A stretch of DNA of 64,000 nt from IMG/VR virus record IMGVR_UViG_2861736478_000001, positions 1 through 64,000 of that record, one strand, 5' to 3'. This DNA is from a virus (taxonomy: Duplodnaviria; Caudoviricetes). Positions within the stretch are counted from its first letter, which is position 1. Each line of letters opens with the position of its first letter. Below, piece after piece: positions 531 to 64,000 of the stretch. The notes beneath the pieces are model-generated. The model was not told the DNA's origin and ran no database searches. It worked only from the letters and a program-made list of their open reading frames with translations. The position numbers and the translations under genes are program-made.

Positions 531-548
531 GCAAGCGAAACCGCTATC
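531..548. promoter_or_regulatory. GCAAGC-N6-GCTTGC family operator-like site
   Basis: GCAAGC GAAACC GCTATC, 20 nt upstream of ATG 568. Confidence 0.6.
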
Positions 549-567
549 GATAGGACCTCACCCGAAC

Positions 568-1212
568 ATGGCACCAAGAACCAAGGCCCGGCGTCAGCGC
601 CGACGCGTCACCGACGACATGAAGAACAAGGCTGCCGAGAAGAAGGCGGTGGCCAACGCTCTGCTGGAAAGCTACGCAGAGCTGCTTATCGCTGACCCGG
701 GCGAGCTGGACCTGTTCTGCGCGATGGCGGCCAGCATCGGCGTCAAGAACGACCCCGCCGACGAGAGTGCCGAAGGCTACTCGGCGAAGAACGTGATGCT
801 GCTCGCCGCGCAGCGCAGGCCCATCTCCCACTGCGGCAGCTTCAGCTACTGGCTCGCCCAGGGCCGCTGCGTCAAGAGCGGCGAGAAAGGCATGGTCACC
901 TTCCGCCGCGCAGGCCGCAAGAACGAAGACAGCGAGGAGGACAAGAAGGCCCGCGAGAAGGGCGAGATCACGATCCCGCCCAAGGTGCGCTGGTTCGTCA
1001 AGGGCGGCACGTTCGACGTGCGCCAGACCCGCCCGATCGAGACCTGCCTGTTCTGCGGCACTACCCCGGCCAGCGCCGACGACACCACCACTGAGTGCCC
1101 CGCCACATGCGAAGTGTTCGCGCTGCGCTCCGGCCCTGTGGTCGACCCCGGCGCCGCGCTGACGCTCGCCGAGGAGATCGTCGCGGCGGGGGAAGACGAG
1201 GCCGACCTGTGA
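568..1212 (+). CDS. ArdC-like N-terminal ssDNA-binding domain protein
   Basis: YSAKNVMLLAAQ...GSFSYWLAQGRCVKSGEKG matches the ArdC/DUF1738 YS..N..L..Q...F..W...GR.V.KGEKG signature. Confidence 0.75.
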   Translation: MAPRTKARRQRRRVTDDMKNKAAEKKAVANALLESYAELLIADPGELDLFCAMAASIGVKNDPADESAEGYSAKNVMLLAAQRRPISHCGSFSYWLAQGRCVKSGEKGMVTFRRAGRKNEDSEEDKKAREKGEITIPPKVRWFVKGGTFDVRQTRPIETCLFCGTTPASADDTTTECPATCEVFALRSGPVVDPGAALTLAEEIVAAGEDEADL

Positions 1213-2825: not shown

Positions 2826-2832
2826 GGCGAAC

Positions 2833-3615
2833 GTGCACCCGATCGCGAAGCTCGCCGCACGGCTCGCCGCCTGGGAAGATCTGGCGCGGCGCGGTACGAC
2901 GGAGCACGAACGTGCCGCCGCCGACGAGCGGGCCGAGGCGCTGCGCCGCAGGTTGCGGCAGGAACGCGCGCAAGAGTGGTACGAGTGGCGCAGTCTCGCC
3001 ATCCCGGAGACCGGCGGGTACGGCAAGGCCCGCTACCTGGCGATGGTGTCGATCGTGAAGGCGTACGGCTGCATCTTGCCGACGTACGGCCCGGGAGACT
3101 CGCCGCGCGATCGGTGGGGCGGCTACCTGCTGCGTTTCGGCGGACTCGGCGGCCTGGCCGAGCAGGTCGCGCTGAGGCTGCCTGACCTGCTCGCGGAGAT
3201 CGACGAGGCGTCGAAGGCCGCAGTAAAGATCTACAACGTCCACCTCCGGGCGTTGCCGGACACCGAGCACGACCCGAAGTGGTCGCCGTCGCTGCGTCGC
3301 CGCTTCCGCGCCGACTACATCGCCACCTACGGCAGCGTCCTCGCCCACAAGATCATCCTTCATGGGGGGAGTCCTGAGCTGCCGTTTTCTGACAGCCCCG
3401 ATGGCTTCTCCAGGGCCCTCGCCGACGCCGCACAGGCTGACGTGAGGCGGTTGGAGCTCGGCGGAGGGATCGATGCGCCCATGGCGCGGCTGTCCCGTCG
3501 CCGGGTTCACGTCCTGGAGTTGTCGCGCCGGATGGACCGGCCGACTAGGCCGCCAGCGGAAACGCTGGCGGTAAGAATGTCCGCACTACAAAGGGAAACA
3601 GGAGATCGATCATGA
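2833..3615 (+). CDS. Hypothetical protein (N-terminus loosely DUF2786-like)
   Basis: 260-aa ORF, GC-rich codon usage, coupled to HU gene. Confidence 0.65.
   Translation: MHPIAKLAARLAAWEDLARRGTTEHERAAADERAEALRRRLRQERAQEWYEWRSLAIPETGGYGKARYLAMVSIVKAYGCILPTYGPGDSPRDRWGGYLLRFGGLGGLAEQVALRLPDLLAEIDEASKAAVKIYNVHLRALPDTEHDPKWSPSLRRRFRADYIATYGSVLAHKIILHGGSPELPFSDSPDGFSRALADAAQADVRRLELGGGIDAPMARLSRRRVHVLELSRRMDRPTRPPAETLAVRMSALQRETGDRS
3552..3569. promoter_or_regulatory. Operator-like palindrome (GCAAGC-N6 family variant)
   Basis: CCGCCAGC GGAAAC GCTGGCGG perfect 8-bp arms, ~43 nt upstream of HU start. Confidence 0.6.
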
Positions 3616-3911: not shown

Positions 3912-3918
3912 CACCGCT

Positions 3919-3956
3919 CGGGTGCGAGCGTAGGGCACGCTCGCACCCGCTCTTTT
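3919..3956 (+). terminator. Intrinsic terminator after hup
   Basis: 13-bp stem CGGGTGCGAGCGT/ACGCTCGCACCCG, 5-nt loop, followed by CTCTTTT. Confidence 0.8.
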
Positions 3957-4026
3957 GCGCGCCAACAACAACGGCTCCGCTGCGTCGCCGCTCAGCTGGT
4001 TACGAGGGTCGCGCGGTGACAGCAGA

Positions 4027-4479
4027 TCACCATCGAGCGCCGAGCTCGAACCAGGTCACGCCTGACGGGGGATGCCAGGAGAAGGCATGGAGTGTGTAGT
4101 TGTCTGCGGGCATGCCATTGCACACCCAGGACTGAGCCGGAGCCTCAAGCTGGAAGTCGATTTCGCAGACCACTTGGTATCCCCACCTTCGTCGAAGTTG
4201 CCAGTGAGCTGGCCCATTCCCGTCCGCGTCGATGTCGATGGCGATGGTTCCTCCGGGAAAGTCCGGAAATTGCATCATGCATCCCGTCCTGTATTGCCCA
4301 GGTGCAGCCTGGCAGCGTTGAGTTGGGTTGGCCGCTGTTGCGGCATTCGGCTTCTGCCGGAGAGAAGCCGCTTGTGGGGTGTTAGCCGATACAGATGTCG
4401 CTGAACTGGGAACCGGCGTTCCGGAGATGGCCAGGCATGCGGCTGCGCCTAACGTGATGCCGATCTTCTTGACGTTCAA
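4027..4479 (-). CDS. Secreted protein (moron), small Cys-containing beta domain
   Basis: TTG start with GGAGA RBS; signal peptide MNVKKIGITLGAAACLAISG; 4 Cys; lower GC than flanks. Confidence 0.75.
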   Translation of the reverse strand: MNVKKIGITLGAAACLAISGTPVPSSATSVSANTPQAASLRQKPNAATAANPTQRCQAAPGQYRTGCMMQFPDFPGGTIAIDIDADGNGPAHWQLRRRWGYQVVCEIDFQLEAPAQSWVCNGMPADNYTLHAFSWHPPSGVTWFELGARW

Positions 4480-4944
4480 GTCTCCGCCCCTTCTATGGAT
4501 AAGTGCGGTAAGGCCTGGTAGGCGAGGTGCTTATGGCCTTATCTGTACACCACGAAGGTTGATCGGAGTCAGAGCGCGAGAGCCAATCAATCAACTCCAA
4601 CCAATTCTGGTCGCCAAGACAATGGAGGATGTCGATGCGAATGCCCCGCATGGGAGTGGAGAGGCCAATGTTGAGAGTGTGCAGTCTCTACCGAAGCACT
4701 GCTGATCGTGCTGCGGGTGGAGGTGCCCTTTATCTTGAGGATTGACCAGGCGATCAGGCCGAGCTCAAGGAATAGGGTGATGAGGCCAGGATTGCCTTAT
4801 CGAAGAAGACGCAAAGACCATGGCGCTGCAGGCGTTTGGAACGCTGCCATGTCTCTTCGATGAAGAATTTTCACATTCTATTGAAGACCCCAGAGCCTCT
4901 ATCGGGCTGCGACAAGCCTTTACCTCAATCTCCGAAGCCGGGAC

Positions 4945-5502
4945 TTAGATGTGATGCGGAATCCTCATGCGCATGAAATAGGCGTTCAGGGCCGTCTCGA
5001 CCATGTCCTGGGGGCCCATCACCATGTTCTCGCAGGCGTAGGTCAGCCTCGCGTCCGTCAGAGGCAGCACACGGACGCCGATGGGGACCAGGTCGAGGTG
5101 TGCGGTGCCGTGGGTGCGTTTGCGCGGGGTGCGCTCCCGCGGTTCCCTCTCGCCCTTTGGCAGGGGCAGGTCCTTGGGGACGCCGAGGGCGTCGAAGTAG
5201 AGGTTGAGGGCGTCCTCGATGACCTTCTGAGGGCCGCCGCCCGTGACGGCGCAGGCTGCGCTGAGGCGGGAGTTGACGGCTGGCTCGATCCGCACGGCGA
5301 GACGGACACGTTCGGTGGGCTGCTTGATACGACGGGGCGTCGTCTCCATCTCACGGCTTCGGCCGGTCCGCGCTGGCGCTTTCGCTTGTTCGGCTCCCGG
5401 GGTGCTGTGATCGTCGCCGGGCTCGACGAACAGGGCTCGCGGAGCTGCTTCGTCGGGCTGTTCTTGCGGCTTTGCCCTTGCCATGAGGGTGGCCTTCTCC
5501 AT
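4945..5502 (-). CDS. Tandem ribbon-helix-helix DNA-binding protein
   Basis: Two similar units RVRLAVRIEPAVNSRLSAACAVTGGGPQKVIEDALNLYF and LVPIGVRVLPLTDARLTYACENMVMGPQDMVETALNAYF after a disordered N-terminus. Confidence 0.7.
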   Translation of the reverse strand: MEKATLMARAKPQEQPDEAAPRALFVEPGDDHSTPGAEQAKAPARTGRSREMETTPRRIKQPTERVRLAVRIEPAVNSRLSAACAVTGGGPQKVIEDALNLYFDALGVPKDLPLPKGEREPRERTPRKRTHGTAHLDLVPIGVRVLPLTDARLTYACENMVMGPQDMVETALNAYFMRMRIPHHI

Positions 5503-5574
5503 CCGGCTCAGGAGTCGTCTCCCCTAAGTGATCCCACGTTTCCGGTTTTTGCGCAAACCGCAACGCCGAATTCA

Positions 5575-5592
5575 GCATGCGAAAGCGCTTGC
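5575..5592. promoter_or_regulatory. GCAAGC-N6-GCTTGC family site
   Basis: GCATGC GAAAGC GCTTGC upstream of the RHH gene. Confidence 0.6.
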
Positions 5593-5797: not shown

Positions 5798-5815
5798 GCA
5801 AGCGAAAACGCTGGC
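5798..5815. promoter_or_regulatory. GCAAGC-N6-GCTTGC family site
   Basis: GCAAGC GAAAAC GCTGGC upstream of the DUF2786 gene. Confidence 0.65.
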
Positions 5816-5866
5816 GACTAGCCATCGCCAGCCCTCACCCGAACCAAGCCTGCGAACGGAGTCCAC

Positions 5867-10709: not shown

Positions 10710-11023
10710 CGGCACAACCGCAAGCCGAAACGCTGGCTGGCCCAAGCTGGGCCCAGTACAACGACTGGGTCAGGCCGTGGTACCCCGAGGGCTCCGTCGG
10801 TCACGCCTACGCCGACTGCCACTGGATCGCCGAAGGCTTGTCGCTGGTCGAAGGGAGCGGCTGGCTGAATCTCCGCGCTGCCTCCTCGCCCGGAGGCTTC
10901 TCCTCGTGCGAGGAGTGTGTGCGGCGCTATGACCCGTCCATGGCCGCGGAGTTGTTCGGCGAGCCAGACGAGCCGGAGCCGAAGAAGCCCCGGAAGAGGA
11001 GGAAGGAGATGTCGACATCATGA
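10706..11023 (+). CDS. Hypothetical protein (H...C...CEEC)
   Basis: GTGA overlap; AGGAG RBS for following dnaN lies in its 3' end. Confidence 0.6.
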   Translation: MTAQPQAETLAGPSWAQYNDWVRPWYPEGSVGHAYADCHWIAEGLSLVEGSGWLNLRAASSPGGFSSCEECVRRYDPSMAAELFGEPDEPEPKKPRKRRKEMSTS

Positions 11024-12146: not shown

Positions 12147-12180
12147 GTCTTATCGCAAGCTGTTTCGCTTGCGATAAGAC
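12147..12180. repeat. Perfect 14-bp inverted repeat with 6-bp spacer containing the GCAAGC-N6-GCTTGC core
   Basis: GTCTTATCGCAAGC-TGTTTC-GCTTGCGATAAGAC, intergenic. Confidence 0.9.
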
Positions 12181-20049: not shown

Positions 20050-20067
20050 GCAAGCAGGTCCGCTAGC
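20050..20067. promoter_or_regulatory. GCAAGC-N6-GCTTGC family site between convergent LuxR and repressor genes
   Basis: GCAAGC AGGTCC GCTAGC. Confidence 0.5.
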
Positions 20068-20581
20068 GAGCTCTGAATCGGAGCGTCGCGGCGTGCATAT
20101 CCATGAGGGCATCGATCTGGCCGAACAGCACGTCGCGCATCTCCTGGCGGTCCTGCTCCGTCGCGCCGGGCACATTGTCGATCTCTGCCAGCTGGCGGAG
20201 GAGCTTCTGCTTGGTCCCCGCGGGAATGTCGTCCAAGCTGACCTTGGAGGCCGCCAGCTCGGTCTTGGCGCGCGCGTCGATCTCCTTGCGGAGCAGTTCC
20301 GCAGCGTCGGTGCGTCCAGTCGCCGCGATTTGCTCGGGGGTGGCGTAGAGGACGAGCCCGATGAGAACGAGCTCCCAGTCCTCCGCGATCTTCCGGCCGG
20401 CTTCGATGTTGCGCCACGTTCCGTCGCTGAAGCCGTACCCATCGGGGGCGATCTCCGTCAGCCGCTTCATCGCGGTCGACAGGCTCATCTTGCGGCTTAG
20501 CGCAGCAGGTCGTTCCCGTAGCTGGCGTATGAGGCTGGCTTCGGGTGGCAGAGCTGGTGAGGCGCTCTTGTTGGTGGCCAC
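20063..20581 (-). CDS. CI-like immunity repressor (XRE HTH)
   Basis: PPEASLIRQLRE...FSDGTWRNIEAG...ATPEQIAATGRTDAAELL; divergent from early lytic operon. Confidence 0.8.
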   Translation of the reverse strand: MATNKSASPALPPEASLIRQLRERPAALSRKMSLSTAMKRLTEIAPDGYGFSDGTWRNIEAGRKIAEDWELVLIGLVLYATPEQIAATGRTDAAELLRKEIDARAKTELAASKVSLDDIPAGTKQKLLRQLAEIDNVPGATEQDRQEMRDVLFGQIDALMDMHAATLRFRAR

Positions 20582-20699: not shown

Positions 20700-20760
20700 G
20701 CGCGATTTTCGCGAATTTCTCGAAAATCCTTGACTTTCTCGAATGATCGACTAGCGTCTG
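20700..20760 (+). promoter_or_regulatory. Lytic promoter with overlapping repeated operators
   Basis: TTGACT(20730)-N16-TAGCGT; repeats TTTCGCGAA, TTTCTCGAA, TTTCTCGAA. Confidence 0.65.
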
Positions 20761-21195: not shown

Positions 21196-21522
21196 GTGCC
21201 TCGACTCACCCCCTCTACGCTGAGCCTCCGTACCCGCCGCAGCACATGGACCGTCGTCCACGCCCAGCAGCTGGACGTGGTCATCCGGCGCACGCCGGAC
21301 AACCGCAACCCCCGCTTCTACGCCTACCGCCACATCGCTGGGCTCACGTGGATGCAGATCCCCGGCCACTTCTACCGGCTCGACCAGGCCCGCGTCGCTC
21401 TCGCAAGCGAATCCGCCAGCATCACCGTCTGGGAGTTGCTGACGCCTCTGCTCGACCTCGCGGCCAAGACCCAGCCGCTCAGCACCGAGCCCCTTCCCAT
21501 CGCGGCCGGTGGTGACCGATGA
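21196..21522 (+). CDS. Hypothetical protein
   Basis: GAAAGGA RBS; coupled. Confidence 0.65.
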   Translation: MPRLTPSTLSLRTRRSTWTVVHAQQLDVVIRRTPDNRNPRFYAYRHIAGLTWMQIPGHFYRLDQARVALASESASITVWELLTPLLDLAAKTQPLSTEPLPIAAGGDR

Positions 21523-24539: not shown

Positions 24540-24989
24540 ATGATCAGACAGGTGTTCGTCGCGGACACGCCGTTCAGTCCCGAGCAGATCTACCACCAGG
24601 TCAGCCTGACGGAGCTCACCCTCGTTGTGGGCCAGCTCCGTGTCCCGGCCTCGGGAGGCGACTTGAGCGCCCTCGTCGACGCCGAGCGGATCGCCGACAA
24701 GCTGGGGCGCGTGGTTGCCGCCTACCACCGTGACCTGAAGATCCGGATCGGCCAGCTCCAGCGCGCGGACGAGCAGCGAGCGACCGCCCCCGCGCTGTGC
24801 GCCTGCGGCCAGCCGGCCGAGCCCGGCATCACGCACCAGACGGACGCGCCCTGCTACCGCGACGAGTCCCGCACCGCCGCCACACTCGAGCCGGAGAGCG
24901 CCCTGGGCGACATCGACCCGCACCTAGCCAAGGTGGTGGATCGCGTGTTCGCGACCCCCACCCACGAAGCCACTCAACCCGCAAGCTAA
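24540..24989 (+). CDS. Hypothetical protein
   Basis: GGAGA RBS; ORF track. Confidence 0.6.
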   Translation: MIRQVFVADTPFSPEQIYHQVSLTELTLVVGQLRVPASGGDLSALVDAERIADKLGRVVAAYHRDLKIRIGQLQRADEQRATAPALCACGQPAEPGITHQTDAPCYRDESRTAATLEPESALGDIDPHLAKVVDRVFATPTHEATQPAS

Positions 24990-24998
24990 ACCGCTTGC
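24981..24998. promoter_or_regulatory. Perfect GCAAGC-N6-GCTTGC site
   Basis: GCAAGC TAAACC GCTTGC upstream of ATG 25031. Confidence 0.75.
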
Positions 24999-33980: not shown

Positions 33981-33998
33981 GCAAGCAGAATCGCCAGC
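33981..33998. promoter_or_regulatory. GCAAGC-N6 family site next to origin
   Basis: CAACCC-GCAAGC AGAATC GCCAGC, same 5' context as 24981 site; upstream of ATG 34010. Confidence 0.5.
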
Positions 33999-35418: not shown

Positions 35419-36163
35419 GACATTCACCAACGCCCGGCGGGCACTCGCGGCACTGGCCGCGACACTCGCACTCACGGGCACACCACTCGCCGCTCTCGCA
35501 GCGGCACAGGATGACCCGCCCGGCGGCACGCCGGGACCGGAGGTCACCGTGACCACCACGGTCACGGTGTTCGTTCCGGTCACGGGTCCGCCCGGACCCA
35601 AGGGCGACACCGGCCCCCAGGGCCCGGCGGGATCTCCCGGACCCCAGGGTCCGGCGGGTTCCCCTGGTCCGGTCGGCGCGTCCGGCAGGCCCGGCGAACC
35701 CGGCAAGGCGGGGGCGGACGGCAAGCCCGGTGCCCAAGGGCCAAAGGGCGACACCGGCCCGTCCGGCAAGCCCGGCGCGGACGGGAAGCCCGGACCTACC
35801 GGTCCGCCCGGAAGCACCGGCCCGCAAGGGCAGGCGGGGCCGCGCGGCATCGCCGGTCCGAAGGGTGACCCCGGACTCACAGGTCCGCCCGGTTCGCCCG
35901 GACCATTCAGCGTTGCTGGAAAGCCGCAAGCGGAACCGCAAGTGGCTTCCACTAGCAGGGACAAACCCCTCGCGGGTGCCGGACTCGCCAGCGCTGACAA
36001 GGGCATCCCGCCCACGGTCGGCCTGACGGTCGGTGCCGTCCTGCTGGCTCTCGCAATCGGAGTCGGACTCACGATCCGAACCCGCAAGCGGAAGCGCAAG
36101 CCGGTAAGCGCCTCCAAGCCCGCCACGTCCACGGACACGGGCGACGAGACGCAAGTCCTGTAA
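35414..36163 (+). CDS. Surface collagen-like protein (signal peptide, 36 Gly-X-Y triplets, C-terminal TM + basic tail)
   Basis: [16 protein letters not shown]; [12 protein letters not shown]...GPPGSPGPF; [28 protein letters not shown]. Confidence 0.9.
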
Positions 36164-36223
36164 CAACCCCCGGCGCTCCCGTACAGGGCGGGAGTGCCAC
36201 CTCAGCCCGAAAGGCGAGAGATC

Positions 36224-47058: not shown

Positions 47059-48341
47059 GTCTGGGTCTGGTCCGGCTGTCGCCCAAGCAGGAGCAGTCCA
47101 TCGCGGAGTCCACCGCGCGCATCAACATCTGGACGGGCGCGGTCAGGTCGGGCAAGACCATCGCATCGCTACTCAGGTGGCTGATGTACGTCTCCCGTGC
47201 GCCGCGCGGAGGCAGTTTGGTGATCGTCGGCAAGACGAGCGACACGATCAGCCGGAACGTCTTCGAGCCGTTGATGGACCCTGCGCTGACCGGGCCGGTG
47301 GCGCGCAGAGTGTTCTACAACCGGGGCGCGCCGACCGCGAACATCTTGGGCCGCCGGATCGAGATCATCAGCGCGAACGATGTCAGGGCCGAGTCCCGCC
47401 TGCGAGGCATGACCTGTGCGGGCGCGTACGTGGACGAGGCCACCTTGATCCCGGAAGCTTTCTGGGACCAGCTCCTCGCCCGCTGCTCGGTACCCGGCTC
47501 CAAGATCTTTTGCACGACCAACCCCGACGCTCCGAACCATTGGCTTCGCAAGCGTTTTCTCCTGCGGAGTCACGAGCTGGACCTGCGGTGGTGGCAGTTC
47601 CAACTCGACGACAACCACAGCTTGGACCCCGTCTACGTCACCAACCTCAAGGCCGAGTACACCGGGCTCTGGTACCGCCGGTACGTGCTCGGCGAGTGGT
47701 GCATGGCCGAGGGCGCGATCTATGACATGTGGGATCCGGATCGGCACATCGTCGACCACATCCCGCTCATGGAGCGCTGGCTGTCGGTGGGCGTCGACTA
47801 CGGCACGGTCAATCCTTTCGCGGCGCTGCTCATCGGTGTCTCGACCCCGGACAAGGTGGGCCAGCGGCGCCTCTACCTGGCCTCCGAACTGCGGTGGGAC
47901 TCCCGCGTCGAACGCCAGCAGCTGACCGACGCCGAGTACTCATCCCGGCTTCAGGAATGGCTCGACGGCATGCCGGACTCCTACGGTCCCGGAACCCGAG
48001 GAGTGCGGCCGGAGTGGCTGATCGTCGACCCGTCCGCCGCCTCCTTCATCACGCAGCTGCACCGTGACGGGCTCCTGCCGATGATGGGCGACAACTCCGT
48101 CCTGGACGGTATCCGCACGGTCAGCAACCTCATCGCCGCCGACCACCTGCGGGTGCACCGCTCCTGCGCAGGTTTCCTCGGCGAAGTCGGCTCCTACAGC
48201 TGGGACGAGAAGAAGGCCGAACGCGGCGACGACGCACCCATCAAGCTCGACGACCACTCCTTGGACGCCGCCCGGTACGGCTTGCACACCACGCAGGCAG
48301 CATGGGCGCAGCTGCTGGAGCCCGTCCCCAACTACAAGTAG
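47055..48341 (+). CDS. terL: Terminase large subunit (PBSX-like)
   Basis: GAVRSGKT; YVDEA; TTNPDAPNHW; GVDYGTVNP; DPSAASF; DDHSLDAARY. Confidence 0.97.
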   Translation: MSLGLVRLSPKQEQSIAESTARINIWTGAVRSGKTIASLLRWLMYVSRAPRGGSLVIVGKTSDTISRNVFEPLMDPALTGPVARRVFYNRGAPTANILGRRIEIISANDVRAESRLRGMTCAGAYVDEATLIPEAFWDQLLARCSVPGSKIFCTTNPDAPNHWLRKRFLLRSHELDLRWWQFQLDDNHSLDPVYVTNLKAEYTGLWYRRYVLGEWCMAEGAIYDMWDPDRHIVDHIPLMERWLSVGVDYGTVNPFAALLIGVSTPDKVGQRRLYLASELRWDSRVERQQLTDAEYSSRLQEWLDGMPDSYGPGTRGVRPEWLIVDPSAASFITQLHRDGLLPMMGDNSVLDGIRTVSNLIAADHLRVHRSCAGFLGEVGSYSWDEKKAERGDDAPIKLDDHSLDAARYGLHTTQAAWAQLLEPVPNYK

Positions 48342-48975: not shown

Positions 48976-50946
48976 ATGGTCTTCGTCACTGAGAACTTTG
49001 AGGACGACACCCTCGACCTCGCCATCACCGGCACGTGGACCAGGACAAACGCCACAGCGGGGACCGGCTCTTGGTCGATGCGCAGTGCGCCCATCGACCA
49101 CAACCAGATGACCGAGATGGTCGTCCAGGTCCCGGCTGGCGCCACGCACCTATCGTTCAAGATCCGCTTGTCGACTGAGGGCGGCGCCTACGACCCGTTC
49201 GAGCTCTACGGAATCGATGCGGTCGGTTCATACGTCCTGCTCGATGAGGCGTGGGGCGTGCTCGACTGGTACACGTGGCTCACTGCCGTTCCCGTCGACT
49301 CGTACACCGCAGTCGCCTTCCGCTACTCGAGGGACAGCAGCGACGGCGGGGGCGAAAACGCCGTCTTCGTCGACGACATTGTCTTCTTCACCGCCGCGCC
49401 TTCACCACCTGCGGCCGTGGCCAACAACTTCAATCACGGCGTAGCAGGCCAACCCCTCACCCCGGACAGCTCCGGCGGCGAGAACGGCCTCCCCTTCTCT
49501 GTATCCGGAAACGTCCACTACACCGACGAGGCTCCCCGCCTGCCCGGCGGGCTTGCGGCGGTCAACCCCGGCCCCGACCTCTCGGCGACCTTCTCCTGGG
49601 CTGACCCGCCTGGGATGAGCAGCAGCAACGCGTTCTACGTGCGGGCCTACTGGTACCGCGCTGAAGACGTCGACACAAGCTCGTCCGTGTTCACCCTGTA
49701 CGGCCCGACCATCTGGTTCCTCGACCTCTGGGCCAGCGGCGGCAGCCTGTACCTGGATGTCCGTGCCTCACGCTTGACGGTGGGCGAGGCTCCTGCCGGG
49801 CAGTGGATCCGCATCGAACTGGCACTCCTGCTCGACTCCCCGGGTGTCGGCCACGCCGAAGCCTGGGTCTACTACCAGCACGACGCCACAGTTCCCGACG
49901 TGCATGTCACCAGCGGGACTATCACCTTCGAGGACCCGCGTCCCAACCAATACTCCTTCTACGTCAAGCGCGACAGCTTGGGCAAACACTGGCTCCTCGA
50001 CGACATCGCCGTTGGGTCGGTCAAACTGGGCCCGGTCGGGCCGCCCGCCACCGAAGCCATCGCCGCGGTGGTCGCGTCGGACACGTCGCAACCCCTTCCT
50101 CGGCTCGCGAAGGGCGACATCGGGTCCGCCAGCGGCGCCGAGGTCGCGCAGTCGTTGCACGGCGCTAGGCAGCGTCTGCTGCCAGCCTCGACCGATGCTG
50201 CCGCAGCGCGGATGCTGCACGGAAGCAAGGGCTGGCGGCTCGCCGCCGCTAGGAACCTGGACCACGCCCGCCCGTTGCACGCAACGAAGATCTTCACACT
50301 GGGCACGGTCGTCGAGGTCAATGAAGGACGGCGCCTGTTCGCTGACATCAGCCTCGGGCTGGCCCACGATCAATCCCGAGCCTTGCCGCTCGTCCCCAGA
50401 CGGGTGAAGACGCTCCATCCCGCCGTGCATGCCGATGCTGCTCAACCGCTCCCACTGGGACGCGGACGCGCCCCCGGCCAAACGGTGACCAACGACATCG
50501 CCACAAGGTTGCGCTGGACCAAGACCCAGACCGTCGGGTTCGTGCTCGACCGGAGCCTGCCGGGCGTCTTTTCGCCCTTCCTTCCGCCACTCGCGGTTGA
50601 CCTACCTCACCGTCTGTGGGGCGTGAGCGCGCCTGAGCTGCTGAGAGGAGTCGTTGTGGACCCCATCTCGTCACTATCGCTGGAGTACGTGCGCGTCTTC
50701 GTCAAGCACGCTCGCGGAACCGAACCCGTGGAGATCGCCTTCACCACACCCGGCGTCGAGCCAGGGCCTGCGGACTGGAAGACCGCCAGTTGGGCCGAGA
50801 CGAAGAATAGAGGTGCGATCGCACACATCCTCGTCGGCCCGAACGGCACCGTGACGCTGGCGGACGGCACCTACCAGGTATGGGTGCGCACTGTCCGGCA
50901 GGACGAGCGGCCCGTGCTTCCCAGCGGTCTCATCCCCATCATTTGA
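48976..50946 (+). CDS. Probable virion fibre/adhesin: two beta-sandwich carbohydrate-binding-like domains, ~17-aa repeats, C-terminal adaptor domain
   Basis: FRYSRDSS.GGGENAVFVDDI; LamG-like W.RIEL...LLDDIAVG; A....A.PL repeats; W.TA.W...LVGP.G...L.DG.YQVWV. Confidence 0.65.
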   Translation: MVFVTENFEDDTLDLAITGTWTRTNATAGTGSWSMRSAPIDHNQMTEMVVQVPAGATHLSFKIRLSTEGGAYDPFELYGIDAVGSYVLLDEAWGVLDWYTWLTAVPVDSYTAVAFRYSRDSSDGGGENAVFVDDIVFFTAAPSPPAAVANNFNHGVAGQPLTPDSSGGENGLPFSVSGNVHYTDEAPRLPGGLAAVNPGPDLSATFSWADPPGMSSSNAFYVRAYWYRAEDVDTSSSVFTLYGPTIWFLDLWASGGSLYLDVRASRLTVGEAPAGQWIRIELALLLDSPGVGHAEAWVYYQHDATVPDVHVTSGTITFEDPRPNQYSFYVKRDSLGKHWLLDDIAVGSVKLGPVGPPATEAIAAVVASDTSQPLPRLAKGDIGSASGAEVAQSLHGARQRLLPASTDAAAARMLHGSKGWRLAAARNLDHARPLHATKIFTLGTVVEVNEGRRLFADISLGLAHDQSRALPLVPRRVKTLHPAVHADAAQPLPLGRGRAPGQTVTNDIATRLRWTKTQTVGFVLDRSLPGVFSPFLPPLAVDLPHRLWGVSAPELLRGVVVDPISSLSLEYVRVFVKHARGTEPVEIAFTTPGVEPGPADWKTASWAETKNRGAIAHILVGPNGTVTLADGTYQVWVRTVRQDERPVLPSGLIPII

Positions 50947-51279: not shown

Positions 51280-51297
51280 GCAAGCGGTTCAGCTTGC
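51280..51297. promoter_or_regulatory. Perfect GCAAGC-N6-GCTTGC site upstream of portal
   Basis: GCAAGC GGTTCA GCTTGC. Confidence 0.75.
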
Positions 51298-51307: not shown

Positions 51308-52875
51308 GTGGCGGTGCCGCTTCCCGACCGTGATATGGAATGGCCCCCGCCCCACACACGGCAAGAGAACAAGCTCTACGCCCAGTGGGGGGCCTGGTAC
51401 TCAGGCGACCCCGACCGGCTGTCACAGGTGTACGGCGCGGGCGTGACACCGGGCCTCGGCCTGGATCTGAAGGGCTGGGACCGGCCGCTCCAATACGCCG
51501 GCGGCGTCGTCGGTCGCGTGGCCCGCTGGTTCTGGGGCTCGCCGATTCCGGCTGGCCAGTCGCGCAGCACGAAGCTGCACGTGCCGATCGCCGCCGACAT
51601 CAGCGCGACCAGCGCCGACCTGCTGTTCTCCGAGCCGCCCACTCTCCGCGTCCCGGGCAAGAAGGGCCAGTCGCGCCTAGACCGGATCCTCGCTGACGGC
51701 GGCGTCTACAGCATGCTGCTGGAGTCCGCCGAGATCGGCTCCGCGTACGGCGGCGTCTACCTGCGCGTCGGCTGGAACAGCGAGATCGCCGACTACCCCA
51801 TCCTCGACCTGGTCCCCGCCGATGCGGCGGTGCCGGAGTTCGCCAACAACAGGCTCCGCGCGGTGACCTTCTGGAAGGTCGTTCATGAGGAGGAGAAGGC
51901 GGTCTGGCGGCACTTGGAACGCCACGAGACCGGCCGGATCTACCACGGGCTGTACCGCGGTGACCGTGAGCGGCTCGGCATGCAGGTGCCTCTGGAGGAT
52001 CACCCCGAGACCGCCGGATTCGCGGAGATCGTAGACGCCGAGGGCGGCCTGGACACCGGCTACGACAAGGCTTGCTCACCTACTACGTGCCGAACATCAA
52101 GCCTCACCGGCTGCTGCGCGGCACTTCGCTCGGCCGCAGCGACTACAGCGGCGTCGAGCCGCTCATGGACGCGCTGGACGAGACCTACACGTCCTGGATG
52201 CGGGACCTGCGGCTCGGAAAGGGCCGGATCATCGTGCCGGAGGTCTACCTGGCCAACACCGGTCGCGGCCGGGGGTCGACGTGGGATCCGGACCGCGAGG
52301 TGTACTCCGGCCTGGGCATGATGCCGCCCGCCAATGGCGGGCCCAGCATGATCACGATCTCCCAGTTCGACATTCGCGTCGCCGAGCACAAGGAGACCGC
52401 TCGCACCCTGCTGGCGCAGATTCTGCGCGGCGCGGGCTACTCGGTGCAATCCTTCGGCGAGGCGGGCGACGGCCAGGCGGCCACAGCGACGGAGATCCAC
52501 TCCCGTGAGCGCAAGTCGTTCGTCACCCGTGGCAAGAAGCTGAACTACTGGACGCCCGCCCTGGCGTGGCTCGCCGAGGCTCTCCTGTCGATCGACCTGG
52601 CCGTGTTCGGCACGAAGGTCGTCGCGGAGAAGGCCACCATCGAGTGGCCAGACGGGGTCATGCCCGATCCGGAGAGCCTGAGCCGGACGCTGGACATGCT
52701 CAACCGGGCCCAGTCCGCCAGCCTCGACACCCGTGTCCGGATGCTCCACCCCGACTGGGACGACACCCAGGTCAAGGCCGAGGTGCGGCGCCTGCGCGAC
52801 GAACTCGGGCTGAACCTGCCGGACCCGGCCGAGCTGGACGAGACGTACGTCCCGGGCGATGGCGACGACGACTAG
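51308..52875 (+). pseudogene. Portal protein (SPP1 gp6-like) interrupted by a 1-bp deletion at ~52070
   Basis: N-part WGAWYSGDPDRL...LHVPIAADI in 51308 frame; C-part LTYYVPN...GRSDY...LDETYTSWMRD in 52072 frame; junction TAC GAC AAG GC TTG CTC. Confidence 0.85.
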
Positions 52876-55678: not shown

Positions 55679-55696
55679 GCAAGCGGTTCCGCTTGC
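55679..55696. promoter_or_regulatory. Perfect GCAAGC-N6-GCTTGC site upstream of scaffold gene
   Basis: CCGCAAGC GGTTCC GCTTGCGG. Confidence 0.75.
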
Positions 55697-56497: not shown

Positions 56498-56515
56498 GCA
56501 AGCGGTTCCGCTCGC
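56498..56515. promoter_or_regulatory. GCAAGC-N6 family site between scaffold and capsid genes
   Basis: AAGCCGCAAGC GGTTCC GCTCGCGGCTT. Confidence 0.65.
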
Positions 56516-60074: not shown

Positions 60075-60092
60075 GCAAGCGAAAACGCATGC
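60075..60092. promoter_or_regulatory. GCAAGC-N6 family site upstream of major tail gene
   Basis: CCGCAAGC GAAAAC GCATGCGG. Confidence 0.65.
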
Positions 60093-60992: not shown

Positions 60993-61033
60993 CGGGGCTG
61001 CGCGAATGGTATGACGCAGACGACGGCCTGGCC

Positions 61034-61249
61034 GTGGACGGCACCGCCGTCTCCTGGGCCGACCTGCTGCAACGCTGGGCTCTCGTCGAGGCCGACCTCC
61101 ACTCCGAGTACGGCGTCGACGTCGACCAGCCCGGCCTTCTTCTCACCCGCACGTGGCGCTGGCTACGCGTGCGCATCCTGGGCCTGCTGTCCGCCGACAC
61201 GCGGACCGCCCGCTCTCTCACCCCCGAAGACCGTCACCACCGGAGGTGA
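61034..61249 (+). CDS. Tail assembly chaperone second segment (-1 frame extension or separate gene)
   Basis: W.DLL..W.LVEADLHSEYGVD...TWRWLRVRILGLLS; frame is -1 relative to 60600 ORF; start uncertain. Confidence 0.7.
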   Translation: MDGTAVSWADLLQRWALVEADLHSEYGVDVDQPGLLLTRTWRWLRVRILGLLSADTRTARSLTPEDRHHRR

Positions 61250-61252
61250 GCT

Positions 61253-63214
61253 GTGGCGTTGAACGTGGGCGAGCTGTACGCGACGCTCGAACTGAAGGAC
61301 CGCCTGACCGGTCCGCTGGGAAAGGCCACAGCAGGGATCAAGGTCAAGGCGACCGGCATCCACGCGGCGATGGTCATGGTCGGGATGGCCGCCGCGCGGA
61401 TGGCCGCCGCGGTCGCATCCGGCGCGTCGAGGGCCGGAGCCGCCTTCGTCTCGTCAGGCGCGAAGATGGCGGCGGCTGGCGCGAAGAGCGCCGGGCTGCT
61501 GGCGGGCGTCGGCGTGGCAGGCGTCGCTGTTGGTGGCGTTCTCGCTGGCGTTTTCGCTGGCATCACTGCCGGGATCGCGAAGATCGGCATCCAGGCGGCG
61601 ATGTCCGCGCCCGCGGTGAAGGCCGCCTTCGCGGACCTGAAGACGTCCGTGCAGGCCGATCTGGCGGACGCGGCGTCGGTGTTCCAGGGGCCGCTGATCG
61701 CCGCTGCTGGCCAGCTCAAGGGCATGTTCTCCAGCCAGATCGCGCCAGCGCTGGGGGACATGTTCAAGACGCTCGCGCCCTTGATCGGCCAGTTCACGAC
61801 CGGGCTGGGCGCCTTTCTCAAGCCCATGCTGCCCGCGATCCAGGGCGTGGTGGCAGCGGTCACGCCGATGCTGTCGGCCCTGGCCGGGTCCATGGGGATC
61901 TTCGGGTCGCAACTCGCTGGCTTTCTTGCTCCCATCTCGCAAGCGTTTTCGCAATCGAGTGGACTGCTGGCCACGCTGGTCACCGGTGTTGGTGGTCTGC
62001 TTCAGTCACTAGCGCCTTTGCTTGCGGCTCTTGTGGGGCTCGCTGCCCAGGTCGCAGGCCCGCTCATGAGCGGGCTGGCCACCGTCGGCCAGACCCTGTC
62101 CGCGCAGCTTGGGCCGGTCCTCATCCAGCTCGGCCCGCTGATCGGACAGCTGATCACGCAGTTCGCGCAGATCGCGGCAGCCGTGATCCCGCTGCTGCCG
62201 CCCTTTCTACAGCTGGCGGCCACGCTGGCGTCGGCGCTGATGCCGGTTCTGACCCAGATCGTCGGGGCGCTCGCCTCGGCTCTTCAGCCGATCCTCGTGG
62301 CGCTCCAGCCCGTGCTGGCTGCTCTGGCAGAGGTCTTCGGGGCCGTCATCACGGCCCTGCTGCCGATCTTGCCGCCGATCTCTCAGCTGATCACCGCGCT
62401 TCTCCCGGTCGTGGTCACGCTGGTCAAGGCGCTCACACCGATTCTGACCATGCTCGCCACGGTGTTCTCCAAGATCGTTGGAGCGATCACGCCGTTCATC
62501 GCACCACTGGTCCAGATCACGACCGCACTCCTACCGCCGCTGATCTCGCTGGTCCAGGCGGTCGTCAAGCTCTTTCAGGGAGACTTCAAGGGCGCGCTGA
62601 AGGTCGTTCAAGATGCCTTCTCGAACGCGGGCAAAGTCATCAAGGACGCCTTCCTCAAGATCATCGACATGGGGAAGAACCTGCTGAGCGGCCTGTGGGA
62701 GGGCATCAGCACCAAGGTCCAGTGGTTCCTGAACAAGATCGGCCAGTTCTTCGGCAACCTCCTGCCCGACTGGGTCAAGGACATCCTCGGCATCCACTCC
62801 CCGAGCCGCGTGTTCGCCGCCATCGGCTCGTTCACGATGCTTGGTTTCGCAGACGGGGTCACCGCCGAGCGGCCTGCCGTCCTTCGCGCCGCAGACCAGG
62901 CGACAAGGGGATTCGGAGCTGCCTTCCGCGCCGGGCTCAAACGCGAGGCCAGCGGCTTGGGCGACGCCATCAACGGCGCGACCCCGGGCAAGGTGGGCAT
63001 CATCCCGCCCGGAGTGAAATCAGCGCTCCGCGCGGGGGGCCGCCGGGCAGGGAAGATCCCCGCAGAGGCAACGCGCCGCGCGGTCTCCCCGAGCGGGAGC
63101 ACCGTCCCCGGGAGCGTGACGGTGAACGTCACCAACATCCACCCCCAGGCGGAACCCACCAGCCGCACAGTGAACCGAGGCTTGCAGTACGCCGCCACGC
63201 TCGGCCTCACCTGA
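61253..63214 (+). CDS. Tape measure protein 1 (653 aa)
   Basis: MALNVGELYATL; Ala/Leu/Pro-rich amphipathic repeats; LGIHSPSRVF hallmark; GGAGG RBS. Confidence 0.9.
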   Translation: MALNVGELYATLELKDRLTGPLGKATAGIKVKATGIHAAMVMVGMAAARMAAAVASGASRAGAAFVSSGAKMAAAGAKSAGLLAGVGVAGVAVGGVLAGVFAGITAGIAKIGIQAAMSAPAVKAAFADLKTSVQADLADAASVFQGPLIAAAGQLKGMFSSQIAPALGDMFKTLAPLIGQFTTGLGAFLKPMLPAIQGVVAAVTPMLSALAGSMGIFGSQLAGFLAPISQAFSQSSGLLATLVTGVGGLLQSLAPLLAALVGLAAQVAGPLMSGLATVGQTLSAQLGPVLIQLGPLIGQLITQFAQIAAAVIPLLPPFLQLAATLASALMPVLTQIVGALASALQPILVALQPVLAALAEVFGAVITALLPILPPISQLITALLPVVVTLVKALTPILTMLATVFSKIVGAITPFIAPLVQITTALLPPLISLVQAVVKLFQGDFKGALKVVQDAFSNAGKVIKDAFLKIIDMGKNLLSGLWEGISTKVQWFLNKIGQFFGNLLPDWVKDILGIHSPSRVFAAIGSFTMLGFADGVTAERPAVLRAADQATRGFGAAFRAGLKREASGLGDAINGATPGKVGIIPPGVKSALRAGGRRAGKIPAEATRRAVSPSGSTVPGSVTVNVTNIHPQAEPTSRTVNRGLQYAATLGLT

Positions 63215-63247
63215 TCCCACCACGCCAGCCCGGACGGGAGGTGCGAG

Positions 63248-64000
63248 ATGGCGATCAACGTCGGCGAGCTGTTCATCCTGCTCGACCTGCGCGACACCAT
63301 GTCCGCCAAGCTCCAGCGGGCGTTCGTCCGAAGCCGCACGTCGGCCACGGACTTCGGGACCCGCCTCAGCAGAGTGACCGGCGGCGCGGTCCAGTCGCTC
63401 ACCTCCACCGCCGTGGCGGCCACCGCCACGGCGGTCAAGTTCGCTGTCCTGGCCGCCGCCGCGGCTTCGACCGCCGGCCACCTCCAGGCCCTCGGCGTCG
63501 CTCTGGCCCCGGCGGGCGGCATCATCGCCGCGCTCCCGGGGGTGGCCGCCCTTGGCGCCGCAGGGCTGGCCACGCTCGCACTGGCCTTCCGGGGTGTCGG
63601 TGACGCCGCGACCGCAGCTCTGGGCGACGACGCGGAGGCGTTCCAGGAGTCGCTCGCGGGCCTGTCGCGTGAAGCTCAGGGCGCAGCGCGGGAACTGCGG
63701 CAGCTCAAGCCCGTCGTCGACGGCCTGCGCCTTTCGGTGCAAGACGCCTTCTTCGCCCCGCTCGCGGGACAAATCGCAGCCGTTGCTGACGCACTTTCCG
63801 CAAGCGTTTCCGCTGGCATGTCAGCCGTTGCGGCGCAGTTCGGCCTCGCCGGTCTGGCGGTCGCGGACTTCCTTCGCACCGCGGAGACCGCGTCTGCTGT
63901 GGAGGCCGTGTTCGGGTCGCTGGCCGATGCCATCGCCGCGCTCACCCCCGCGATCCAGCCCGTCGCCGCAGGTCTGCGAGACCTTGTCGTAGTCGGCGCG
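63248..64000 (+). CDS. Tape measure protein 2 (partial, runs off the window; absent from ORF track)
   Basis: GGGAGGTG RBS; open frame MAINVGELFILLDLRD...AALPGVAALG..GLATL.LAF.GVGDA...SVQDAFFAPL to the window end. Confidence 0.85.
   Translation, partial: MAINVGELFILLDLRDTMSAKLQRAFVRSRTSATDFGTRLSRVTGGAVQSLTSTAVAATATAVKFAVLAAAAASTAGHLQALGVALAPAGGIIAALPGVAALGAAGLATLALAFRGVGDAATAALGDDAEAFQESLAGLSREAQGAARELRQLKPVVDGLRLSVQDAFFAPLAGQIAAVADALSASVSAGMSAVAAQFGLAGLAVADFLRTAETASAVEAVFGSLADAIAALTPAIQPVAAGLRDLVVVGA

Follow-up and report, generated by a model that had tools for sequence, protein, structure and literature searches.

Why does a phage genome carry one and the same inverted repeat in front of early and virion genes, and what reads it? 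In the window (the whole 64,000-nt stretch analysed here), the exact palindrome GCAAGC-N6-GCTTGC occurs at 12155, 24981, 51280 and 55679, the four copies that a first-pass annotation had listed. Dinucleotide shuffles gave a mean of 0.01 exact copies per window, in agreement with the earlier estimate of about 0.01 chance matches per 64 kb, and none of them contained four. With two mismatches or fewer, 21 sites were observed against 5.0 expected, and 0 of 100 shuffles had 21. The previously reported near-matches at 531, 3552, 5575, 5798, 10720, 20050, 21403, 33981, 47548, 56498, 60075 and 63800 are present in this search, and those at 35926 and 61939 were recovered by a weight-matrix scan. The sites and the gene of the candidate binder are as follows.

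531..548, plus strand: site about 20 nt 5′ of the likely ATG of the ArdC-like gene
3552..3569, no strand assigned: perfect variant palindrome GCCAGCG-GAAA-CGCTGGC, 42 nt 5′ of the HU gene; fold energy −22 kcal/mol
4945..5502, minus strand: candidate binder gene, whose 185-aa product is predicted to have a disordered N-terminus followed by two ribbon-helix-helix (RHH) units in tandem
5575..5592, minus strand: site, presumed autoregulatory operator, 72 nt upstream of the minus-strand RHH gene and in the same orientation
5798..5815, plus strand: site 51 nt 5′ of the divergent DUF2786/DUF7168 gene
10720..10737, plus strand: intergenic site, 10 nt past a stop codon, upstream of the DnaN-like gene
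12155..12172, no strand assigned: exact copy within a palindrome with 16-bp arms, 15 nt 5′ of the gene at 12188
20050..20067, plus strand: site where the LuxR-type and CI-like genes converge, between their 3′ ends
21403..21420, plus strand: in-gene site, matched by both the search with two mismatches or fewer and the matrix
24981..24998, no strand assigned: exact copy overlapping a stop codon, about 28 nt 5′ of the next ATG
33981..33998, plus strand: site 12 nt 5′ of an ATG
35926..35943, plus strand: site in a non-coding gap, from the matrix scan
36084..36101, plus strand: site in the same gap as 35926, 92 nt 5′ of the gene at 36194
47548..47565, plus strand: in-gene site in the terminase large subunit gene, kept in G201
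51280..51297, plus strand: exact copy, 10 nt 5′ of a portal-region gene
55679..55696, no strand assigned: exact copy upstream of the scaffold gene
56498..56515, plus strand: site 3 nt past the scaffold stop and 29 nt 5′ of the capsid start
60075..60092, plus strand: site centred 40 nt 5′ of the major tail (tail tube) gene
61939..61956, plus strand: in-gene site in tape measure gene 1, kept in G201
63800..63817, plus strand: site within tape measure gene 2, with the same sequence in G201

Form and distribution of the motif

The host is a Nonomuraea-like actinobacterium with an 11.5-Mb genome, and the prophage, about 99 kb long (contig C10, 198.9–298 kb), extends beyond both window ends; the site array continues for about 3 kb to the left and about 30 kb to the right. 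Across the whole 11.47-Mb genome the exact palindrome occurs five times, always within C10 215961–297242, against three matches for a reversed control pattern. The best weight-matrix hits genome-wide (about 37 strand-hits, about 28 sites) all fall inside C10:200863–297242, the prophage holds all 27–30 good matches, and the scan found no site of prophage-range score in the other 11.4 Mb. In 200 genomes from the same family, the motif did not cluster anywhere. Comparison with the host chromosome and with shuffled sequence, proposed earlier as a check, found the motif absent from both.

Refinement gives CC-GCAAGCG-RWWN-CGCTKGC-GG, an inverted repeat of 18–22 bp with a near-invariant 5′ arm and a degenerate 3′ arm. 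The 6-bp spacer, which had been described as constrained, shows position biases over 22 sites: position 7 is G in 15 and position 12 is C in 20 of them, position 8 is R, and positions 9–10 are A/T. On these biases, the repeat is better written as 7+4+7. The genome-wide palindrome of the first-pass annotation thus stands as a phage-wide array, but its motif is asymmetric and oriented, and the array overruns the window.

Nine related prophages carry 13–36 copies each of their own variant of the motif (GCAAGCA, GCTAGC, GATAGCG, AATTGCG or AAAAGCG), and the motif differs even among prophages of a single genus. Conservation in relatives, another check suggested at the outset, therefore takes the form of a kept motif with lineage-specific variants. 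Four more loci, found through RHH homologs alone, have a palindrome with an AGC-N6-GCT core in the RHH/DUF2786 intergenic region; its recurrence is clear in the 20-kb locus L096 and weak in L094.

Placement, polarity and the choice between DNA and RNA

By our own gene calls, 13 of 27 sites are strictly intergenic, compared with 23% non-coding sequence (p=0.004), and six further sites lie at gene ends or before likely true starts, so that about two thirds occupy short intergenic gaps or gene ends. Sites had been claimed before the ArdC-like, HU, RHH, DUF2786, portal, scaffold, capsid and tail-tube genes, and they are found there. Several of these positions recur. The position equivalent to 5575 carries a site in 8/9 related elements; the site at 5798, before the first gene of an early operon (DUF2786/DUF7168), is syntenic in G201, G208 and G203; the scaffold–capsid position (56498) is occupied in 6/9 elements; and a site is centred 39–41 nt 5′ of the tail-tube ATG in 8/9.

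On the coding strand the better arm is the 5′ one, facing upstream with respect to transcription, in ratios of 21:3 in the prophage studied here (G000), 22:3 in G201 and 21:8 in G208. Of the three exceptions in G201 one, and of the eight in G208 two, lie upstream of the minus-strand RHH gene, and at 5575 the intact arm is likewise on the RHH-gene side. The 9-mer ACCCGCAAG occurs nine times on the plus strand and not on the minus strand. In 22 syntenic site pairs between G000 and G201 the 5′ arm has no changes over 132 positions, with flanks about 15% diverged, which indicates on comparative grounds that the strong arm is under selection.

These features could in principle be read in RNA or in DNA. 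In an RNA reading, the repeats would act mainly in the transcript, as intergenic stem-loops serving as attenuating terminators, RNase processing sites or 5′/3′ stabilisers, with gene conversion or an RNA-binding factor of defined sequence specificity keeping the stems uniform. Conservation is indeed sense-strand specific. At the scaffold–capsid and tail-tube junctions the stems are lengthened to 9–11 bp by flanking bases, which covary from phage to phage (GCC/GGC, GCT/AGC) and show G·T on the sense strand in G210, G205 and L020–L022; the capsid and tail-tube junction stems are followed by T-rich tails, and the sites there keep a fixed distance of 36–41 nt to the ATG. The site at 56498, with its extended stem and T-rich tail, is thus also a stem-loop, and in G207 the tail-tube position holds a hairpin of unrelated sequence; these junction stems and the G207 hairpin suggest that structure matters at some sites. 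However, arm mismatches are mostly non-wobble (G·T does not exceed A·C: 8 vs 10, 5 vs 9 and 6 vs 15), arm pairs 3 and 4 are Watson–Crick in only 37% and 57% of the G000 sites, and the high-scoring sites at −46, 531 and 21403 fold at only −2.7 to −7 kcal/mol. The sites were not picked up by a terminator scan, an Rfam search gave no match, and in-gene copies are conserved too. Moreover, the RNA model has no role for the site upstream of the RHH gene or for the variant-specific residues of the RHH protein. The lack of a G·U bias and the many strong sites that do not fold point to a DNA operator and not a general RNA hairpin, and action mainly in the transcript is unlikely. We rejected a general RNA hairpin, intrinsic terminator or REP-like element on the non-wobble mismatches, the unfoldable strong sites and the invariant 5′ arm; stem behaviour of that kind is confined to the capsid and tail-tube junctions. 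Also unlikely is a DNA-level reading of the sites as activator or promoter elements, with a promoter just downstream of each being switched on by the RHH protein or by a sigma-like factor of the phage. It would suit the fixed spacing of 36–41 nt from site centre to start codon at highly expressed genes, the five early-region sites that are followed by a common leader CCTCACCCGAA and an RBS, and the several operon heads that carry sites. Against it, no sigma-70-like −35/−10 was found near the sites, the gap of 10–30 nt between site and RBS barely fits a −10 element plus leader, and many sites lie 3–25 nt past a stop codon in tight operons, or in genes, where a promoter is improbable. The sites are, very probably, bound by a protein as DNA. 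As a separate observation, a simple roadblock would not need to stand at a fixed 36–41 nt from the start codon.

A tandem RHH protein as the candidate binder

If the sites are protein-bound DNA, comparative data argue that the binder is probably the RHH protein encoded at 4945–5502. AlphaFold2 (AF2) predicts a disordered 55-aa N-terminus followed by two strand-helix-helix units (E66–72/H74–87/H91–106 and E139–145/H147–160/H164–178; domain pLDDT >90). The best Foldseek matches of this model are chains E/F/G of the F-plasmid relaxosome, presumably TraY, followed by DndE and VirC2; the relaxosome chains score a probability of 1.0 with E-values of only 5e-3 and a sequence identity of 10–13%. Sequence searches returned weak matches to Pfam RHH_10 (E=0.004, 17.8 bits against a cut-off of 27) and, in a PDB profile search, to SvtR (0.0067) and the PutA RHH domain (0.23); a PHROG search with the protein gave 0 matches. 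From its structure model, the protein is predicted to be a single-chain tandem RHH, a pseudo-dimer like F TraY. The first-pass annotation had postulated one phage-encoded dimeric binder; the candidate is phage-encoded, but it is likely to be a single-chain tandem RHH and not a classical homodimer.

An RHH ortholog is present in 9/9 relatives, and residues of strand 1, which putatively face the DNA, vary with the motif: A-R-E/D with GCAAGCG, I-H-Y with GATAGCG, M-Y-Y with AATTGCG and S-Y-Y with AAAAGCG, a correlation across few and phylogenetically related elements. The strand-1 residues differ between the G203 and L097 proteins despite a common GCTAGC-type site. The early region of G210 is mostly far nearer to that of G204 than to that of G205, whereas its RHH protein is nearer to that of G205, with which it has its motif in common, than to that of G204 (75% vs 66%). 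Whole-protein RHH distance correlates with motif distance at a Spearman coefficient of 0.83, against 0.68–0.81 for structural proteins, and so is only a slightly better predictor. The RHH protein had headed the earlier list of candidates, and it is the one picked out by the ortholog in all relatives, the upstream site and the strand residues.

A different phage regulator could bind the sites (the CI-like protein of 20063–20581, the HTH proteins at 20730, 12814 and 30121, or the LuxR-type protein), with the RHH gene as a regulated target. The CI-like and 30121 genes also occur in all relatives, the CI gene has a site adjoining its 3′ end, and the 30121 ortholog has one at its 3′ end in six relatives. 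Yet CI, one of the candidates put forward previously, tracks the motif badly: the CI proteins of G204 and G210 are 86% identical with different motifs, those of G205 and G210 only 63% identical with a common motif, the recognition helix is nearly invariant over three motif types, and neither the matrix scan nor the relatives' sites place a site in the cI–cro intergenic region. The Cro-like and LuxR proteins, also proposed, were missing from several motif-bearing relatives; protein queries recovered no HTH_17 protein from G202, G204, G205 or G210, and among the relatives they located the LuxR-type protein only in G202. Correlation with motif distance is weakest for the 30121 protein (0.55). We regard this set of regulators as improbable binders. 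A host global regulator was rejected, since the chromosome has no sites in the prophage score range and the motif varies between prophages of one genus. The sites might instead be dispersed centromeres or nucleoid-organising sites for an RHH centromere-binding protein, serving partition of an extrachromosomal prophage form; omega of pSM19035 and the scattered sopC sites of N15 are parallels. Several relatives are indeed separate contigs of 85–108 kb (one labelled a plasmid, two circularly permuted), and in L094 parA and parB directly follow the RHH gene. The L094 cassette, however, has its own HTH ParB, G202 and G204 have no ParA downstream of the RHH gene, and the G000 element is integrated, adjoining a large serine recombinase gene, with no AAA_31 ParA on contig C10. 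Polarity with respect to transcription would also be unexpected for centromeres. The partition role suggested by the first-pass annotation is accordingly most improbable.

Collectively, the sequence data slightly favour the reading that the repeats are operators of one phage protein, most likely the tandem RHH, for prophage-wide silencing. Each RHH molecule would act as a pseudo-dimer reading one arm, with GCAAGCG as the strong arm, and a second molecule, about one helical turn further on, would sit on the inverted, weaker arm. Expressed in the lysogen, the protein would occupy the site upstream of its own gene and about 28 sites across the ~99-kb prophage. Most of these lie in short gaps between co-directional genes, where the strong arm would meet oncoming RNA polymerase. 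Silencing could then combine promoter occlusion at operon heads with a polar roadblock within operons, as at mycobacteriophage stoperators. Repression is preferred over activation solely because of gene orientation and site placement; given a protein-bound site and the RHH binder, silencing is, by analogy, the likely function. The earlier reading of the whole genome as a silencing regulon agrees with the element specificity, the conservation in relatives and the stoperator-like polarity. The RHH protein would work alongside a CI/Cro-type switch of the classical kind, and related prophages could differ in the immunity specificity that the RHH protein sets.

A broader and rather doubtful proposal is that an undescribed tandem-RHH family is the polar genome-wide silencer and immunity determinant of ~100-kb Streptosporangiaceae prophages and phage-plasmids, with dual-use operators that also form mRNA stem-loops at the capsid and tail-tube junctions and set major virion gene expression. 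If so, one element would couple lysogenic DNA silencing with lytic RNA dosage control. Phage-wide operator arrays are among the few cases in which a regulator, all its sites and their co-evolution can be read from genomes. The present one offers a natural series, in which at least six variants of the site go with diverged tandem-RHH proteins while the prophages are otherwise alike; it could yield an RHH recognition code and could be used to ask whether a pseudo-dimeric RHH stops RNA polymerase in a polar way, like the unrelated L5-type repressors. The case may also account for heteroimmunity between prophages in Nonomuraea and Streptosporangium, two genera exploited for their natural products, and could be a source of orthogonal repressor/operator pairs for use in high-GC actinobacteria.

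Comparison with known phage-wide operators and RHH proteins

Cluster A mycobacteriophages (L5 with gp71, Bxb1, TipsytheTRex) and Streptomyces phage R4 and its relatives have 20–35 copies of a short site, the stoperator, most of them in short spaces between genes and aligned with the direction of transcription; the motifs differ between phages together with the repressor, which is believed to work as a single-chain, asymmetric unit (PMC9283540, PMC6550527, PMC10276819). The array described here is similar in having at least 20 copies phage-wide (27–30 in a 99-kb prophage) and none in the host, in being mostly intergenic and oriented, in its variant motifs across relatives and in its predicted single-chain binder. 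It differs in that the site is an inverted repeat of 18–22 bp with one strong and one weak arm instead of 13 bp and asymmetric, in that the candidate binder is a tandem RHH whereas gp71 has an HTH and a C-terminal stirrup domain, and in that G000 also has a separate CI/Cro-type switch, unlike the L5/R4 stoperator phages. No homology to gp71 was seen. The G000 system is an analogue of the gp71-type stoperator regulon, not a member of it, and reveals no new kind of system.

Phage phiC31 offers another comparison, in that its repressor c reportedly binds conserved inverted repeats (CIRs). The CIR is an inverted-repeat operator of about 17 bp that autoregulates the repressor gene and recurs, highly conserved, in intergenic regions genome-wide; the repressor belongs to the HTH proteins and is produced as several isoforms. 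Both are actinophage inverted repeats, here presumed to act as autoregulatory operators, with intergenic copies throughout the genome, but sequence, protein family and phage lineage differ. In Cluster K mycobacteriophages, a short motif (SAS) precedes the RBS or start of many genes, and a subset (ESAS) has an imperfect inverted repeat upstream. The start-associated motif CCTCACCCGAA (11 copies on the plus strand, 0 on the minus strand) resembles it in lying directly before the RBS or start, in some cases with an inverted repeat upstream; the sequences are unrelated, however, and the inverted repeat here is far more widespread, occurring also at late genes and within genes.

As to the protein, F TraY is a monomer with the fold of an RHH dimer, two strand-helix-helix units in one polypeptide (PMC12117103). 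The candidate here is predicted to be a single-chain tandem RHH like TraY, VirC2 and DndE; unlike TraY, it has a disordered 55-aa N-terminus and is proposed to be a genome-wide phage regulator. TraY itself serves the relaxosome as an accessory factor, acting at oriT and at the traY promoter, and its monomers bind neighbouring direct and inverted subsites. What would be new here is the protein solution, most likely a tandem RHH, to the known stoperator kind of phage-wide silencing.

Distribution and polarity of the inverted repeat

The window corresponds to G000:C10:203807-267806, where G000 is the 11.47-Mb genome (70% G+C) of a Nonomuraea-like actinobacterium and C10 its contig carrying the prophage. 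The four exact copies of GCAAGC-N6-GCTTGC claimed in the first-pass annotation are present, against a mean of 0.01 in dinucleotide-preserving shuffles, and all near-matches reported there were recovered. With up to two mismatches, the window holds 21 matches vs 5.0 expected, a number that none of the shuffles reached. Extending the count to the host chromosome, as had been proposed, gave five exact copies in the 11.47-Mb genome, all at C10:215961-297242; a reversed control pattern occurred three times. Using a weight matrix built from the sites plus their flanks, the top ~37 strand-hits (~28 sites) all fall within C10:200863-297242, and no match of comparable score was found in the remaining 11.4 Mb. 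Hence the array placed at 531-63817 does occupy that interval but is not confined to it, as it continues beyond both window ends.

Features of the prophage (window coordinates; negative values lie left of the window)
12155, 24981, 51280, 55679: exact copies of the repeat
-2943, -2685, -1899, -46: further sites, left of the window
64534, 71810, 74587, 93436: further sites, right of the window
-4935 to -2911: large serine recombinase gene, preceded by a host AcrB-type gene (left end)
4945-5502 (-): gene of a predicted single-chain tandem ribbon-helix-helix (RHH) protein
92936-93901: last phage-like gene with a site, followed by a purB-like gene (right end)

Bounded by the AcrB-type/serine recombinase end and the purB-like end, the prophage is about 99 kb long. 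Pfam matches back the identities of genes beside the sites: ArdC-N, DUF3560 plus methyltransferase, RHH, DUF2786/DUF7168, DnaN, HU, a YqaJ-type recombinase domain, terminase, SPP1-type portal, and tail tube. When the terminase-region protein (48976-50946) was compared with 50,697 phage records, a 20% partial match to Streptomyces phages was the only one, and thus there is no annotated close relative among sequenced phages. In the portal region, two frames overlap (51308-52321 and 52072-52875, the second carrying the SPP1_portal match) with an offset of 764-765 nt that is also found in the related prophage G201; the alternatives are a single gene with a frame change and two separate genes. The stretch at 3950-4945, which separates the HU and RHH genes, is a low-GC, non-conserved insert; because G201 lacks it, it looks like a moron. 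Its ORF (4027-4479, minus strand) specifies a small protein that apparently has a signal peptide.

The consensus, (A)ACC-GCAAGCG-RWWN-CGCTKGC-G(G), consists of 7-bp arms that flank a 4-bp, mostly A/T centre. When the sites are read on the coding strand of almost all genes, 21 of 22 seed sites have GCAAGC as their 5′ arm; variation is seen in the 3′ arm (GCTTGC, GCTGGC, GCCAGC, GCTATC, GCAATC, and others). The 9-mers ACCCGCAAG and CCGCAAGCG occur 9 vs 0 and 13 vs 2 times on the plus vs minus strand, respectively. The better arm lies upstream rather than downstream in 21:3 sites in G000 (p=3e-4), 22:3 in G201, and 21:8 in G208, another related prophage. Several exceptions (one of three in G201, two of eight in G208) are located upstream of the minus-strand RHH gene. 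Likewise, site 5575 in G000 presents its intact arm to the RHH gene, and site 5798, 220 bp away, to the divergent plus-strand gene. Since orientation switches with gene strand, site polarity tracks transcription and not the direction of replication or packaging. Based on a conservative gene call, 13 of 27 sites are strictly intergenic vs 23% of the element being non-coding (p=0.004); another six fall within the final 15-46 nt of a gene or ahead of a likely true start.

A second, strand-specific sequence, CCTCACCCGAA (11 copies on the plus strand vs 0 on the minus strand of the prophage), is located at early genes, 0-22 nt ahead of their RBS or start codon, with copies at 556, 5833, 21175, 25007, 36732, 38409, and 38715, and, left of the window, at -1853 and -1504. 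Five copies come after an RHH-type palindrome. Its enrichment is limited to the G000/G201/G207 lineage, and it is reminiscent of the start-associated sequences known from Cluster K mycobacteriophages. At four early genes a CTAGCCA box (~5818, ~36710, ~38385, ~38680) precedes it by 10-22 nt, perhaps as a component of a phage-specific promoter or leader.

Motif variants in related prophages and the candidate binder

A capsid search identified 38 related loci in Nonomuraea, Streptosporangium, Planomonospora, Streptomyces, and other genera, several of them on 85-108 kb contigs. The expectation that related prophages conserve the motif was borne out in a particular form: each of nine elements examined has its own repeated variant.

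Table. Repeated variants in nine related prophage elements
G201: arm GCAAGCG; 33 sites
G208: arm GCAAGCA; 36 sites
G203: GCTAGC-N6-GCTAGC; 35 sites
G202 / G206c38: GATAGCGG..CCGCWATC; 19 / 9 sites
G204: AATTGCGG; 13 sites
G205 / G210: AAAAGCGG..CCGCAATC; 19 / 18 sites
G207: arm GCAAGCG; 5 sites

An AGC-N6-GCT core is common to nearly all variants, and changes are confined to the outer arm positions. Among 200 genomes of the family, the exact G000 motif forms no other cluster and is present at most three times per genome, which is the control level; the relatives carry variants in its place. Lineage-specific variants are also the pattern of Cluster A mycobacteriophage stoperators (phage-wide repressor sites), where the motif varies between subclusters along with the repressor (PMC6550527). 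G207 has an RHH ortholog with the strand residues of G000, yet just five sites, which suggests a decaying regulon or site replacement. Lifestyles are mixed: G000, G201, and G203 have a serine recombinase, G204 (L061-L066) and G205 (L067-L071) are ~100-kb contigs circularly permuted relative to G000, and one relative is labelled a plasmid. Integrating and extrachromosomal members are likewise mixed in Cluster A mycobacteriophages.

The binder is expected wherever the motif family occurs. In searches with the protein queries used, the HTH_17 (Cro-like) protein gave no match in motif-bearing G202, G204, G205, and G210, and the LuxR-type protein matched among the relatives only in G202; both were rejected. 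The CI-like repressor is encoded in all elements, but was rejected as binder for its discordance with motif type: it is 86% identical in G204/G210 despite different motifs and 63% in G205/G210 despite a shared motif, and its presumed recognition helix is nearly invariant across three motif types. No site is present in the cI-cro intergenic region.

On comparative sequence grounds, the RHH protein is the candidate that fits on every count. Orthologs are found in all nine elements, and in eight of these a site lies upstream of the RHH gene, usually at a distance of about 60-160 bp from the start (nearer 380 bp in G202). In most elements this site is oriented with the RHH gene, and a second one faces the divergent DUF2786 gene. 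The AF2 model shows a disordered N-terminus followed by two strand-helix-helix units (domain pLDDT above 90), with profile matches to SvtR over the first RHH unit and to the PutA RHH domain over the second. In Foldseek, the top-ranking structures are F-plasmid relaxosome chains E, F, and G, which we take to be TraY from chain length and number; DndE and VirC2 come next. TraY is a monomer with a complete RHH-dimer fold (PMC12117103). The strand-1 residues expected to face DNA vary with motif type: A-R-E/D (G000, G201, G207), I-H-Y (G202, G206c38), M-Y-Y (G204), and S-Y-Y (G205, G210). This comparison rests on few, related elements, and G203 and the protein of locus L097 share a GCTAGC-type site yet differ in strand residues. 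In the early region G210 is mostly 80-99% identical to G204 vs 43-70% to G205; its RHH protein is the exception, with 75% to G205 (same motif) vs 66% to G204. Whole-protein vs motif distance is confounded by phylogeny and weakly discriminating.

The RHH family is small, with 105 cluster representatives among 1.8 billion proteins, of which about 25-30 are full-length tandem forms; a full HMMER scan gave the 105, a word-indexed search only five close relatives, and PHROG no match. At four loci reached via RHH homologs alone, the RHH gene is divergent from a DUF2786 gene with an AGC-N6-GCT-core palindrome between them [arms GGAAGC, GCAAGC (with GCCAGC-type copies elsewhere in the locus), and GCTAGC]. 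Its recurrence is clear in the 20-kb L096 (21 vs 5.5 expected) and weak in L094 (4 vs 1.1). Distant family members (L094-L097 intergenic regions) have also kept a GCGCAAC-type box (TTGCGCAA in G000, ~5535-5560) that precedes the RHH start codon by 35-60 nt; it may serve as another operator or belong to the RHH promoter.

Double-stranded DNA or transcript as the target, and other readings

Only 37% and 57% of G000 sites have Watson-Crick pairs at arm positions 3 and 4, respectively. Unpaired positions are mainly true mismatches, with G.T vs A.C at 8 vs 10 in G000, 5 vs 9 in G201, and 6 vs 15 in G208. Several sites with top matrix scores (-46, 531, 21403) fold weakly (-2.7 to -7 kcal/mol). In 22 syntenic G000/G201 site pairs, none of 132 5′-arm positions has changed (manual count), whereas the 3′ arm, spacer, and flanks do vary, flank divergence being about 15%. 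That the sequence of one arm is kept, and not the pairing, points to a protein reading double-stranded DNA. An Rfam scan of the window gave no match. Given the lack of wobble bias, the weak folding, and the empty Rfam scan, the RNA hairpin was rejected as a general explanation, and as the main function it is unlikely. Two late positions are of a different kind. At the junction of the scaffold and capsid genes, and ahead of the tail-tube gene, stems gain length from flanking bases that covary among phages and are followed by T-rich tails. The distance from site centre to start codon is 36-38 nt at the junction (six of nine elements) and 39-41 nt at the tail-tube gene (eight of nine), and G207 has at the latter position an unrelated hairpin with 8-bp arms, CCACGAGC-N6-GCTCGTGG. 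These two sites probably also act as stem-loops in the transcript; fixed spacing together with stem-loop character suggests a second, mRNA-level use.

That the sites act as activator or promoter elements is rather unlikely; a sigma-70 scan around the early sites found no promoters. A canonical terminator scan around the same sites did not detect them. Binding by a regulator other than the RHH protein is quite improbable in view of the comparisons of CI-like, Cro-like, and LuxR-type proteins, and a host regulator is excluded because chromosomal sites are absent. A role as partition or nucleoid sites is very improbable: parA-parB lies directly downstream of the RHH gene in one relative (L094:10001-12713), but no ParA was found in the G000 prophage or, in G202 and G204, in the region after the RHH gene.

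In addition, a hairpin at 5810-5832 (GCTGGCG-N9-CGCCAGC), conserved in G201, shares the 3′ arm of site 5798. This arm could pair with its own 5′ arm or downstream, an attenuator-like layout.

Proposed mechanism and comparison with known systems

In the model that we favor, one pseudo-dimeric RHH molecule would read the strong arm, and a second would fill the weaker inverted arm, one helical turn off. Bound ahead of its own gene, the RHH protein would be autoregulatory; at the heads of operons and in the short spaces within co-directional operons, where the strong arm points toward the polymerase, its binding would silence the prophage. The RHH gene shares the minus strand with the CI-like gene and runs opposite to the lytic genes, an arrangement that fits expression in the lysogen.

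Reversal of L5-type stoperators abolishes their block (PMC9283540), and R4-type systems in Streptomyces phages work by stoperator logic (PMC10276819). The proposed silencing would share the logic of both. Such a phage-wide array is not surprising in principle. If the candidate binder is correct, the system offers a natural specificity series for RHH-DNA recognition and would show polar silencing of a whole genome achieved a second time, by an unrelated protein. Functionally, the closest systems are the Cluster A and R4 stoperators and the conserved inverted repeats of phiC31. The present array is not a member of these: its candidate binder has another fold, its sites are partial palindromes with polarity, and a CI/Cro-type switch is present separately. 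In structure the closest protein is F TraY, whose job differs.
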